The notes: a model not told the origin generated them from the letters alone. Shown: positions 43,399-51,315, numbered from the stretch's first letter. The stretch: DNA of 62,624 nt from Hadesarchaea archaeon (GCA_029259175.1 JAPDJH010000012.1:1-62624); one strand, 5' to 3'. Made by a program: numbers and translations.

Positions 43399-46300
43399 AT
43401 GCCGGAACATGGCGGAACCCCCGGAGTCGGCCGCAAGACGGTGGCTGTAGCCATTGTCTTAGCTTTCTTGCTAAGCAACCTCCTCGTAGTCGTGAACGCC
43501 ACTCCGGTTGAGGCGAGAAGAAGTTCCAAATACTCCAAATATAGGGGCTCATCTTACCGAGCAAAGCTTAGCTCGATAGCGGCGCAAATCGCCGCGATAC
43601 GAGCCAAGATCAGCGCGATATCTGCGAAAATCGCTGCAATGAGTTCAAGCTCATCTTCCTCGACGTCTAGCTTGTCGTCAAGCTCATCATCGGGTTCATC
43701 TTTATCCGGCTCATCGGGCGTATCGGTCACCTCATTATCCTCCTCGAGTCACTCAGTACGTTCGTCGGGCGGCTCAAGAGCTGGTTCAAGAGCTTCTTCA
43801 TCCTCCTCCAGCTTGACCTACACGGTCCGGCGCGGGGACACCCTGTCCGAGATAGCGGCGAGGTACGGGACCACGGTCTCCGCCCTGATGAAGGCGAACC
43901 CGCAGATCAAAAACCCAAACGTGATCTATGCGGGGCAGACCCTGAAGATCCCCAGGACGTCTGGTTCATCATCTTCTGCACAATCCGCGGCCGAACCGCA
44001 GCCCACTTTGGCTGCTGCCCCAGCAGTCAGATCAATCAGTCATCCATTGGTGCGAGCGGGCAAGTTCACGATCACGCTTAAGGGTGACCACATTAGGGAC
44101 GGAGCATCTGTCCTCGTTTACTCATCCGATGGCCGCCTCGTCGATCAAATGAGCGTGAACGAGGGAAGTAGCCAAATCACCTACACGGGAGACTTGCCAC
44201 TTGGCAGTTACACGGTCAAGGTCAGGAACCCGGATGGACAGGTGTCGAATGGCGTCACACTCACCGTCGCTAAATTCATCGCCGGTGACACCGTCAAAAC
44301 GACCGCAAACCTGAACACGCGCGCGGGAGCCGGTATCGGTTACTCTGTTATTCGAACGATGCCGAAAAACGCTACCGGCACCGTCATCGATGGTCCTGTG
44401 AAGGCGAACGGCTACACGTGGTGGAAGATTAGATACAGCGATGGCACCGAGGGGTGGTCAGCAGAGCCCTGGCTCGAAAGAAACACGACCTCGGGCTCCT
44501 CGTCCACGCAGACCCGGAAGACCAACGATCAACAAACCCAAACAGCCAATGATACAGCGGCAAATGACGACCGATCTCAGACCATTAACAAGTCCTCCCA
44601 GAGATCCTCGACCCCACAGGCTGCCCAGCAGACCACCCTCAAGGGTAAGTTCAACGTTAATGACACGGTTCGGACGACCGCTAACCTAAACGTCCGAGCC
44701 GGAGCCGGCATCAGGTACTCAGCCCTCAAGACGATGGCGAAGGGCAGTACAGGCACGGTTCTCGACGGGCCAAGATTCGCAGATGGCTACACGTGGTGGA
44801 AGATTAGATACAGCGACGGGACAACCGGCTGGTCCGCCGAGCCTTGGCTGGAAGAGTATACGCCGCTTACTCCTTCCGGCTATGTAGAATATGTGGTCAA
44901 GAGCGGCGACACCTTGTCCGGGATAGCAGCCAAATACGGAACCACGGTATCTGCCATAATAGCTATTAATCCTCAAATAACCGACCCCGATAGAATTTAT
45001 GTAGGGCAAGTTCTAAAGATCCCGCAAAGCTCCCCAACTCCCTCGACCAAGTTCAGCGTGGGCGACACCGTTAAAGTCCTCCCGAACATAGGACTCACGG
45101 TCCGCACCCCACCGAACTGGGAGAGGATCGGTGTCGAGCCCAAGGGCGCGATCGGCACAGTCATAGACGGACCCCTGCTCGGCTCCTACCGCGGGCTCAC
45201 CTTCTGGATGTGGAAGATCCGCTGGCGCGACGGTACTGTGGGATGGTCGGCCGAGGGGGACGCATGCGAGGACTATCTCACGAAGGTCGATACCCCAACA
45301 GGCGGCAAGCCAGATTTAACAGTTGCAGGCCGGGTGGGCGCCCCCTCCTCCGGCGGAGTCGGCGACAACATATCTGTAACGTTCACCCTTCAGAACCAAG
45401 GAGACACCGCTTCAGGACCATTCCGCTACAAGATCTCGCTTTCAACTTCTGCTTGGGGAACAACATATGAACTCGGTACATTCTCCGAGGACTCGCTGGG
45501 TGCTGGGGCTCTGAAGCAGGTGACGAAGAGTGTCACCGTGCCACGGGTGAGAGCAGGTTACTACTACGTGACCGTCTATGTTGACTGCGATGAGAGCGTT
45601 GCGGAATCCAACGAGAGAAACAACATCGGGAGCACCTATTCGCACAGAATCCGCATATACCAAGCAAGCCCCGCTCCGGTAATCACCTCAATCGATCCAA
45701 CTGCGGTCTGGGAAGGAGGCACGTTCAGGCTCTTCATCCACGGAAAAAACTTCGCATGGGATGCCTCGGCCCAGAATTTCCGCAGCGGGATGACCATCTC
45801 AGTCTACGGACGGGATGGGCAGTTGGTTGCGCGCTTGACCCCGCTTGACAAGAGAGCGATAGGAGTTGGGCTGAGGAACTCACGGAACGTGCAGAACTCT
45901 AGCACGCTAATCAACTGCTACGGCAGCAACCTCCCCGCCGGCACCTACACTGTTAGGGTGAAAAACCCAGACGGTAAGGAATCGAACGGCGTCACGCTAA
46001 GGGTTATCCCCGCCAGCCAGCACATGTTCACTCCTCCCTCCAACCTGCTCGACTATGTGAACCACACGAGCTGCCGTACCAACCGTCTCAACCGAATGAT
46101 ACTCCACTCCGCCGAAAACCGTATGATCACCTTCACTTGGAACGCCCTAAGACCCAAGCCGGCCTCGCTCAGAGATGCTGCTGAGCGCTTAGTCCACTAC
46201 GTACATAATTACATCACCTATAGCTCCAAAAACGGGAAGATTGTGTGGGAAAATGCGAACTGGCTCAGCGACTACGACGTGATCGAGCACCGCAGGGGGG

Positions 46301-49300: not shown

Positions 49301-51315
49301 GGTACGACGATCTCATCAACTGGGCGATCGACCAGTTCGACGAATCGGGTTTGATACCCAAGGGCCGGACTTGGAACCGCAAGTCGTACGGCCCGTCGGG
49401 CGAGGGCGCGGCGAACGCGGGTGTAAGCGGGAAGGACTGGTACGTGGAGGTGGACGCGAGCTGCCGCTGGAACCTCGCCGAGATCTTCCACTCCAGCTCC
49501 TATGGGTGGAGCCAAAGCACCCACGAGTACTACGTGCACGACCGGGGTGAAGCATCGCTCGGGCCCAGCGTCCAGGGGAGTGCGAGTGTCGACGCTGGCT
49601 ACGGGCCGGTCGACGCAAATGTCACGGTTAAGGGTGAAGCCGGGGTGGGGGCGAAGGGAAGCTACGACGCGGAGGCGCGCGTCGGGCTGAGCGGCGTGAA
49701 GCTCAACCTAGGTGCCGATGCCCTCGCCGGAGCGTACGCTGAGGGCAAACTTGCGGGCACGATCAGCTTGGCAGATGCATTTGCCTTGCAGGGCTACATC
49801 CAGGGTAGGGGAACCGCGGGGGTTGGAGGAACTGCTGGTGTGGGTGTCAGCGTGGAGTGGAACAACGGGCTAACGATCTCCTACAGCTTCAAGGCTGGAG
49901 CGTCTCTGGGTCTGGGCGGCAGCATCTCCCACGGCAGCAAGCTTTATATTAATCCACCTGTGATCGTGAAGGCTGTTGAAAACACCGCGGCCGGAAGAGC
50001 TGTGAAAACCGCCGCAGCGGCCGTGAGCCGCACAGTGGAGCGTGTGGACAACCGCGCCGGGTCGGCAGTCACTTCCGCGATGACCCGCGTAGCGGGCGAG
50101 CCCTCCGAGGTCGAACGGCGCACCGTCAGGAACTCCGACGATATCCCGTGGTGGGAGCGGGAGGATCCCTACCGCTTCGACAGCAAACGTTCGAGAGCCT
50201 CGGTCGAAAAGAAGTGGAGCGCCCGAAGCAAGGGAAGCACAACCGTCGGTGGCTGGAAGCGCAGCACCTCTCACGACGATATAGTGAACTTCGTGATCGA
50301 TCGCTTCGACGACGCGGGCTACATCCCCTCCGTCCACGAGCACCAGCGCACGCAGTACGGCTGGCACAAAAACGGCTCCGCGTCGGCTGGTGCCGAAGGA
50401 AAGGACTGGCACGCGAAAGCAAACGCGAGCTACCGCGCAAACCTCGCCGAGACCTTCCACTCACGCTACGTCGGGTGGAGCCAGTCCACTCACTCTTACG
50501 TGGCCAGCGACCGCGGTGAGGTCTCGCTTGGGCCGCGCGTGCACGGAGATGTCAGCGCCAGCGCAGGCTACGGCTCCGTGGATGTGAACGTCACCGCCAC
50601 GGGCGAGGCGGGTGTCGGGATGAAGGCTGGATATGATGTCGGGGCCCGGGCCAGCCTGAGCGGGTTCTCGCTCAAGGCGGGCGTAGAGGGGCATGCCGGG
50701 GCCGACGTCGAGGGGAGCGTGGCCGGCACCGTCAGCCTAGGCGACGCGGTCGGTTACCAGTACTACGTCAACGCCAGCGGACAGGCCGGCATCGGGGGCA
50801 AGGTGGGAGTGGGTGCGGGCATCAGCTGGGACAACGGATTCACGATCTCGTACAACTTCAAAGTCGGGGCCACCCTCGGGCTGGGCGGCAGCATCTCGCA
50901 CGGCGGCAAGCTCTACATCAACCCACCCAAGGTGGTCGAGAAAGCAAAGAAGGTCAGGGACTGGGTCGACGAGAGAATAGGTGGAGCCATTGTGGATACG
51001 AACATCACGCTCCGCATGTCTTCCACCAGCGTGTCCGAGGGTCAGGAGGTGGTCTTCAGCGGGCGCGTGACCCGGAAGGACACGGGAGAAGGGGTCGCGG
51101 GGGCGAGGGTCGAGATATACGATGACGATGGGGCCGGAGATGACCTGATGGCTTTCGGGTTCACCGACGAAAACGGGCACTATTCGATCCGCTGGACAGC
51201 AAAGCGCATGGATCCGTGGCCCGGAGCTGGCGAGGTTGAGGTGTACGCGAGGACCGACGGCACGAGCGCGTTCGACGGGTCCAGGACCCCGGTCCACACG
51301 CTCAGCATAAATTAA
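43399..51315 (+). CDS. Giant secreted multidomain protein: LysM x3, SH3b x5, IPT/CARDB, transglutaminase-like, DUF3597-like, thermonuclease, caspase-like, duplicated Gly-rich domain, Ig-like
   Basis: Signal peptide; [17 protein letters not shown] LysM x3; TANLN.RAG.G..GP..GYTWWKI.Y..G..GW SH3b-like x5; [48 protein letters not shown]. Confidence 0.93.
49270..50960 (+). repeat. Intragenic duplication of a ~230-aa Gly/Ala-rich beta domain
   Basis: Copy 1 ~49270-49980 and copy 2 ~50240-50950 share GGW.R.T..DD..N..ID.FD..G.IP ... [17 protein letters not shown]. Confidence 0.9.

Follow-up and report, generated by a model that had tools for sequence, protein, structure and literature searches.

Bacterial-type wall-binding modules joined to lineage-typical hydrolase domains in a candidate giant exported protein of a Hadesarchaea archaeon

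What use would an archaeon have for wall-binding modules of bacterial type? The question is raised by a single open frame, 43399..51315 on the + strand, in 62,624 nucleotides (nt) of DNA from a Hadesarchaea archaeon (GCA_029259175.1 JAPDJH010000012.1:1-62624; this whole stretch is called the window below), which encodes a protein of 2638 amino acids (aa) in which LysM and SH3b modules are strung together with spacers, three enzyme domains and two orphan C-terminal modules. ATG 43399 is the earliest start available in the frame, which is open over 2643 codons. The reading that we prefer from the make-up of the protein, and hold with about even confidence, is that it is an exported hydrolase array that would attach to bacterial wall material and break it down, for antagonism or for necromass scavenging. 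The LysM and SH3b modules are foreign to the lineage and of bacterial type, inserted in two blocks (aa 141-620 and 1324-1546) into a frame that is typical of the lineage, and the same architecture was met in one other protein, here called P0003.

The initial annotation of this DNA had described one ORF (open reading frame) with a signal peptide, a short coiled coil and a Ser-rich linker, three LysM domains, five SH3b-like repeats and IPT/CARDB spacers. The first three features can be read from the translation. A Pfam scan of the protein (20 families at E <= 0.1, with the gathering score as cut-off) matches the predicted LysM starts exactly, at 43819, 44890 and 47371 (192 bits overall, E 1e-57, in 3 stretches; 70-73.5 bits per copy against a cut-off of 20.9). 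The SH3b repeats fit the predicted starts of 44272, 44647, 45050, 47566 and 47833, four of them through SH3_3 (overall E 3.5e-25; 28.4-38.7 bits against a cut-off of 27) and the fifth by internal BLAST similarity only. The full order of parts, all on the + strand, is as follows.

43399..43515 (+), signal peptide or signal anchor (aa 1-39), read from the translation: R12-K13, hydrophobic 14-33, VEA 37-39; conserved in P0003
43555..43641 (+), short coiled coil (aa 53-81) of 3.5 heptads, with L57, I60, I64, I67, I71, I74, I78 and M81 at positions a/d
43642..43818 (+), Ser-rich linker, read from the translation
43819..43953 (+), LysM 1, 73.5 bits, E 2e-20
44047..44268 (+), Ig-like beta-sandwich (aa 217-290), TIG-related; internal BLAST to aa 779-869 at E 7e-13, weak E-set matches
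44269..44478 (+), SH3b 1, SH3_3 at 36.1 bits; 76% identity with SH3b 2
44641..44868 (+), SH3b 2, SH3_3 at 37.3 bits
44890..45024 (+), LysM 2, 70.1 bits
45049..45258 (+), SH3b 3, divergent (aa 551-620); internal BLAST to SH3b 1, 2 and 4 at E 1e-9 to 2e-12, with no Pfam match of its own
45307..45627 (+), CARDB (aa 637-743), 54.7 bits
45676..46005 (+), IPT/TIG (aa 760-869), borderline at 20.3 bits with a cut-off of 20.9
46018..46578 (+), transglutaminase-core cysteine hydrolase domain (Transglut_core aa 924-1026), 44.3 bits, cut-off 23
46675..47142 (+), domain X (aa 1093-1248), an alpha/beta sandwich by AlphaFold2 (AF2; predicted local distance difference test score, pLDDT, 75-87), conserved in P0003
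47143..48036 (+), cassette with no counterpart in P0003: a 70-aa stretch, LysM 3, SH3b 4 and SH3b 5
47371..47505 (+), LysM 3, Pfam LysM
47566..47778 (+), SH3b 4, SH3_3
47836..48036 (+), SH3b 5, SH3_3
48046..48378 (+), staphylococcal-nuclease domain (SNase; Pfam aa 1571-1654), 45.6 bits, cut-off 21
48565..49248 (+), caspase-like Peptidase_C14, clan CD (aa 1726-1865), 54.6 bits, cut-off 21.4, profile positions 1-143 of 233
49261..49998 (+), orphan C-terminal module, copy A: a polar N-subdomain of ~113 aa, then a Gly/Ala-rich amphipathic beta subdomain ending LYINPP
50230..50967 (+), orphan C-terminal module, copy B, 54% identical to copy A
50986..51312 (+), C-terminal Ig/transthyretin-like (CarboxypepD_reg-like) domain, sub-threshold Pfam matches

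The distribution of the wall-binding modules is what sets this protein apart from its lineage. LysM (PF01476) was found in one of 65 genomes of the order and in one of 66 species genomes of the phylum, 26 of which are at least 90% complete, and SH3_3 (PF08239) likewise in one of the 66; for both, the sole site is this ORF. With the LysM3-SH3b4-SH3b5 cassette as query, 717 proteins matched at E <= 1e-3 among 6122 scored. In the best 120, which are those listed, all nine rows with an organism in the source name are bacterial, and the matches include multi-LysM proteins and LysM fused to GH25, glucosaminidase, lysozyme, CHAP, M23 or NlpC/P60, with LysM identity mostly 50-77%; a Thermomicrobiales Amidase_2 + SH3_3 protein is 43% identical over 67% of the cassette. 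A scan of species genomes with query A1 gave SH3b look-alikes only, at 27 loci (14 in Chloroflexota, 6 in Patescibacteria, 2 in Poribacteria, 1 in Bacteroidota and 4 in archaea). As to the route of entry, a prophage origin was considered and rejected: the PHROG endolysin matches come through LysM only, and no viral genes were seen nearby.

Such isolation in the phylum is also what an assembly chimera or bacterial contamination would produce, and the splitting of the 5' end into short unitigs at repeats, together with a GC content at third codon positions (GC3) of 0.75, near the genome's 95th percentile, could be read in the same way. The host genome (1.31 Mb in 23 contigs, 90.9% complete, 0.5% contamination) carries a full-length archaeal small-subunit ribosomal RNA, and RadA, RFC, a multi-OB RPA, CDC48 and HMG-CoA reductase are encoded on the same contig as the giant gene, in agreement with the archaeal host assumed from the start. 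The same DNA is present in runs of two studies, one of hydrothermal-vent metagenomes, which may be the source of the assembly, and an independent one of marine sediment. In run X2 a single contig of 11,401 nt bridges 44787-56192, and in the independent run X5 a contig of 2,623 nt over 45341-47963 joins the transglutaminase (TGase) domain, domain X, LysM3 and SH3b4 with 0 differences. Both LysM/SH3b blocks are flanked on either side by domains that match sister genomes (caspase-like, SNase, C-terminal Ig and TGase core). The GC and GC3 of individual domains do not separate LysM/SH3b from the lineage-shared parts, among which the caspase-like domain is the richest in GC3, at 0.86, and P0003 is a second protein with the same architecture. 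The flanking shared domains, the bridging contigs, the archaeal markers and the GC3 values together make an artefact very improbable, and the chimerism or contamination that the initial annotation had named as fatal to its reading did not come to light.

One correction to the assembled gene seems to be needed near its 5' end, where, in contigs of runs X2, X5 and X7, position 43973 is followed, after 7 bases that the assembly lacks, by 43768 once more.

43768..43973 (+), tandem-repeat unit (Ser linker + LysM1), which with 7 nt more makes 213 nt, in-frame, or 71 codons

The depth over this unit is 33.8 against 13.1 for its neighbourhood in X2 and 11.2 against 5.7 in X5, or 2-2.6 times overall. 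The unit has probably been collapsed in assembly, the real gene having 2-3 copies, that is, 1-2 LysM more; P0003 likewise has two or three copies of the unit at its N-terminus. The tandem-unit contigs of three runs have A, not G, at 43875. In two metatranscriptome libraries from an independent sample, contigs cover parts of the gene, including 43201-43797, and leave uncovered the upstream divergent genes at 42500-43010, which the DNA runs do cover; this is a weak hint of transcription. We regard the gene as real, coding for a very large exported protein, and probably expressed.

The frame into which the two blocks appear to have been set, made up of CARDB/TIG spacers, a TGase-fold hydrolase, a Ca-type SNase and a clan-CD caspase-like peptidase, is one of lineage-typical extracellular parts. 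The caspase-like domain, the sole C14 in the host genome, is 50-57% identical to that of PPC-CUB-C14 proteins in 7 of 40 relatives; the SNase is 45-58% identical to small stand-alone SNases of many relatives, and the host genome also encodes a stand-alone SNase of 150 aa and a TGase-core paralogue of 598 aa. The C-terminal Ig domain is 44-50% identical to repeats of a 780-aa protein in relative G023. The PPC(x2-3)-CUB-Peptidase_C14 proteins of the relatives (L006 172-2136, L009 184-2154, L010 1-2196 and L007 1495-2640) are conserved and appear to be caspase-like peptidases that are secreted; next to their genes, on the downstream side, comes a small Ser/Thr-rich ORF, and L006 also has an enolase there.

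The three enzyme domains also keep the motifs first ascribed to them. In the TGase domain the triad is C969 (46303-46305), H1009 and D1025, invariant in P0003, and GxC..YAG, DAHA and DPT are in register with transglutaminase 6g49, though the match is weak (E 0.018). DGDT, R..DTPE and YGR of the SNase are in register with the nuclease of S. aureus, and the whole catalytic set is present (D1560, D1562, R1573, D1578, T1579, E1581 and R1621), in which we take the Asp/Asp/Thr to be Ca-binding and the Arg/Glu/Arg to be catalytic. The C14 dyad SGHG/DACRSG aligns with SGHG/DSCHSG of 3bij. Judged by these alignments, catalytic residues are retained in all three. Domain X, which follows the TGase, has no Pfam match, and its best structural Z of 7.9 lies within the tool's stated noise; shorter relatives of the TGase+X pair (aa 874-1248) were absent at E <= 1e-3 among 6792 scored candidates. 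The 70-aa stretch before LysM3 (47143-47352, aa 1249-1318) was seen in this protein only, and its helical motif R..MYEKLGLG...YTGTA.QN..LL..L recalls small wall-binding three-helix repeats. Even at E <= 10, Pfam gave nothing usable on this insert, on the orphan-module N-subdomain or on the linker between SNase and caspase-like domain.

A full-length search of 5.8 billion proteins in the length class of 1450-4617 aa (7995 scored) gave three matches at E <= 1e-3, with the same architecture only in P0003, so that the supposed rarity of the architecture is borne out in that class. P0003 is a protein of 2308 aa, encoded on one 11.6-kb metagenome contig, with 54% identity (1946 bits). It retains the signal peptide, coiled coil, Ser linker, Ig, SH3b, CARDB, TIG, TGase, domain X, SNase and both C-terminal modules, and its SNase catalytic residues are invariant. 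The coiled coil is duplicated in P0003 and there are seven LysM; the LysM3-SH3b4-SH3b5 cassette, the caspase and the final Ig domain are lacking, and a LysM+SH3b pair sits within the first C-terminal module. A comparison of the two sequences points to rapid module shuffling between them, and from the differences the binding modules, and even the caspase, would be mobile cassettes on a conserved core. Scans of metagenome contigs with the C-terminal module pair and with the TGase+X pair found no relative.

Residues 1955-2200 and 2278-2523 make up the two orphan module copies, 54% identical to each other. The initial annotation had spoken of toxin-like domains, a label that finds no footing in this part of the protein: the C-terminal 700 aa have no Pfam or PHROG match, the modules have none in NCBIfam either, and the ESM Atlas places the C-terminal module among unnamed clusters only, with recognition below the useful range. 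A HMMER search of 1.84 billion representatives with the module gave five proteins at E <= 1e-3: a fragment of 91 aa at 66% identity, which by its sequence probably belongs to the family as its third member, one repeat protein, and three secreted Gly/Ala-rich proteins whose matches are weak. The P0003 insertion splits the module, which for that reason can be divided into two subdomains. In the first (~113 aa) the four copies all agree in NLAE.(F/M)HS, W(S/N)(Q/R)S(T/S)H and D(R/S)GE; Gly, Ala, Ser and Val make up 53-54% of the second, which has a two-residue amphipathic periodicity (z 7.1-7.4 against shuffles). Structural matches to outer-membrane barrels (Z <= 8, root-mean-square deviation 7-13 A; best Z 8.0, with 7-10 A) are within the tool's noise. 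At most, the orphan module may be described as an amphipathic beta module that is possibly membrane- or envelope-active. P0008, P0009 and P0010 share with it an amphipathic beta region rich in Gly/Ala, after which comes a helical stretch of small residues, and two of the three have signal-peptide-like N-termini; these proteins may form an unnamed family.

It is these modules that bring to mind a weapon of the MARTX/polymorphic-toxin type, in which caspase-like processing, permeabilisation of the membrane by the beta modules, and a lethal cargo of nuclease and TGase-fold enzyme would be combined. The position of a clan-CD peptidase after the nuclease and ahead of the two C-terminal modules is as this would have it, as are the amphipathic periodicity (z ~7) and the four predicted strands of ~26 residues; and shuffling between only two full-length members, with a patchy distribution, resembles that of arms-race genes as characterised in PMC12352652. 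P0003, however, has the modules without the caspase, the fold is of low confidence and the barrel matches are no better than stated above, no immunity gene was recognised downstream, and a caspase-like domain of this kind is ordinary equipment of secreted peptidases in the lineage, so that we consider a weapon of this type unlikely. Its boldest form is a wall-docking, self-processing, multi-effector toxin whose captured LysM/SH3b would aim at murein, whose caspase-like domain would free the cargo, whose orphan module, of a new family, would open the membrane, and whose nuclease and cysteine hydrolase would kill. Such a protein would be an archaeal invention that parallels MARTX and polymorphic toxins in function, and we think it distinctly unlikely.

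The reading of a wall-docking hydrolase array, which we prefer, would run as follows. After Sec export, the LysM/SH3b array would anchor the protein to peptidoglycan, either on bacterial cells or in wall debris, a murein binding that is deduced from the nearest relatives of the modules. The three hydrolase domains would then degrade nucleic acid and peptide or protein associated with the wall, their activities and substrates being predicted from the domains, and, more speculatively, the envelope or membrane might be the target of the two C-terminal modules with their long amphipathic beta-hairpins. The archaeon would in this way antagonise bacteria, harvest bacterial necromass as a peptide-fermenting heterotroph, or do both. 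Since the caspase-like and SNase domains resemble the lineage's own extracellular enzymes, scavenging fits at least as well as warfare, and the lineage-typical secreted peptidase and nuclease, with an aldehyde:ferredoxin oxidoreductase encoded close to the giant gene, would suit a peptide-fermenting scavenger. The part of the initial proposal that stands is what is carried by the architecture, the export signal, the foreign binding modules and the catalytic motifs.

Several points weigh against this reading. The protein's Pfam scan has no GH25, lysozyme, glucosaminidase, SLT, M23, Amidase_2/3, NlpC/P60 or CHAP match at E <= 0.1, so that no recognised catalytic domain of a peptidoglycan hydrolase (PGH) accompanies the binding modules. 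Transglutaminase-core domains are frequent in archaeal surface proteins unrelated to murein. A secreted SNase needs a translocation step to reach the DNA of living cells, and none was identified in this case. The AF2 model of the C-terminal module, four antiparallel strands of ~26 residues each, has a pLDDT of 45, and the TGase part of the TGase+X model falls below 50, both being low-confidence models. RNA libraries may contain carried-over DNA, so that the contigs are no proof of transcription. Among the downstream ORFs no immunity-like gene was recognised, and there were no informative matches there. Finally, LysM also binds chitin and other glycans containing N-acetylglucosamine (GlcNAc) (PMC12352652, PMC4004799).

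This last property, together with the gene that follows, leads to another possibility, a scavenging enzyme whose target would be not peptidoglycan but chitin or another polymer that contains GlcNAc. The immediate surroundings of the giant gene are these.

43221..43398 (+), upstream intergenic region, 178 nt, AT-rich, with TATA-like stretches
51339..56060 (+), downstream gene, starting 23 nt past the giant gene's stop

A Shine-Dalgarno-like GGGGAG at 43389-43394 lies 4 nt 5' of ATG 43399. The downstream gene, which is probably co-transcribed with the giant gene and is covered by the same 11.4-kb contig as part of it, encodes a surface protein of 1573 aa with Kelch, LTD, CBM_4_9, GH114_assoc and Glucodextran_B domains and a C-terminal transmembrane anchor, and of these CBM_4_9, GH114_assoc and Glucodextran_B would suit a polysaccharide substrate. 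Against chitin, the Pfam scan gave the giant protein neither a chitinase nor any other glycosidase domain, and among the matches listed its SH3b are closest to Chloroflexota Amidase_2 proteins and its LysM to bacterial murein hydrolases, for which reasons we rate this possibility as rather improbable. In G003, of the same genus, small ORFs and no giant gene precede the homologue of the downstream gene. Contigs of both studies are 5 bases shorter than the window at 54301, within the downstream gene, and that of X5 is also 1 base shorter at 54874; either there is a frameshift, in the window or in the contigs, or the strains differ. Downstream of both giant genes, at 56740-57657, lies the gene for a membrane-anchored protein of 305 aa with a weak DUF3108-like match. 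The GC content of the window is 0.56-0.64 at 18000-38000 and 44000-56000 and ~0.50 elsewhere.

Further giant surface-protein genes lie in the window at 2-2983 (-), 51339-56060 (+) and 60548-62623 (+), among them two paralogue-like Kelch + lamin-tail-domain proteins and one DUF2341 + Laminin_G_3 protein, and open frames of 2146-3863 aa in same-genus relatives match them. In a genus so rich in giant surface proteins (at least three others in the window, besides those of the relatives), the protein might be a non-degradative adhesin of the cell's own surface or matrix, or a biofilm component, that holds the cell's own glycans, extracellular DNA or a bacterial partner; the signal anchor, coiled coil and Ser-rich stalk do resemble a tethered fibre. 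LysM/SH3b, however, occur in no other genome of the phylum, which speaks against a conserved function in the envelope, and catalytic residues are kept in all three enzymes, those of TGase and SNase in P0003 as well, so that a purely adhesive role is not likely. The host itself is a small-genome archaeon in a small phylum, from a vent and sediment setting. No Mur-ligase domain was found in its genome (91% complete), which leaves no indication that the archaeon builds a wall of murein or pseudomurein itself.

The closest company for a wall-docking hydrolase array is provided by the modular PGHs of archaea, which Strock et al. 2025 (PMC12352652) report from 175 of 3,706 archaeal genomes as patchy, often horizontally acquired, partly secreted and bactericidal. 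The giant protein has in common with them (e.g. Woldo of Halogranum salarium) export, bacterial-type wall-binding modules and bacteria as the proposed target, as well as an uneven distribution, shuffled domains and marks of horizontal acquisition. Those enzymes are defined by a recognised PGH catalytic domain (M23, GH25 etc.), are of a few hundred residues and have been shown to kill (PMC12352652), whereas the giant protein has the wall-binding modules and no recognised PGH catalytic domain, and so falls outside that definition, is ~10 times larger, and carries as cargo a TGase-fold hydrolase, an SNase, a caspase-like peptidase and the orphan module. Bacterial autolysins and endolysins (LytE, LytF, SafA, the lysostaphin type, Chloroflexota Amidase_2 + SH3_3) are the nearest relatives of the binding modules, with 43% identity for the SH3b tandem; the binding modules alone are in common, and the catalytic partners and the domain of life of the host differ.

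The initial annotation had also drawn a link to PeiW and PeiP, which we take to be pseudomurein endoisopeptidases of the Peptidase C71 family. What they have in common with the giant protein is a design, wall-binding repeats with a transglutaminase-fold Cys-His-Asp hydrolase. The giant protein, however, has murein-type LysM/SH3b, not pseudomurein-binding (PMB) repeats, and does not belong to a prophage of a pseudomurein methanogen; profiles of Peptidase_C71 and of PMB repeats found nothing in it at E <= 0.1, so that the link comes down to an analogy of fold and design. For sediment archaea, Lloyd et al. in 2013 are said to have described extracellular clan-CD peptidases of the gingipain/clostripain type and proposed them for the degradation of detrital protein. 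The giant protein too would be a secreted clan-CD peptidase in a sediment archaeon; its peptidase is, however, a C14 that forms one part of a multi-enzyme protein with wall-binding modules. MARTX and polymorphic toxins are very large exported multi-effector proteins that include a clan-CD processing peptidase, and size, export, effector-like domains in a string and the clan-CD peptidase are common to both. The domains shared are generic, however, and neither recognised repeats nor a secretion partner nor an immunity gene was seen. In the literature, no paper was found on both Hadarchaeota and LysM, nor one on all four of LysM, transglutaminase-like, staphylococcal nuclease and caspase.

Evidence for archaea that attack or feed on bacteria is recent and is based on small enzymes with canonical PGH domains. 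The giant protein would represent a different route, in which bacterial wall-binding modules have been grafted onto a deep-subsurface archaeon's own extracellular repertoire of protease and nuclease, and one that searches by canonical hydrolase domains would presumably overlook. If the binding of murein holds true, the orphan amphipathic beta module would merit a structure determination, the archaeal toolkit for anti-bacterial action or necromass harvesting would be broadened, and there would be a handle on how uncultured archaea of sediments and vents acquire peptides and nucleotides.

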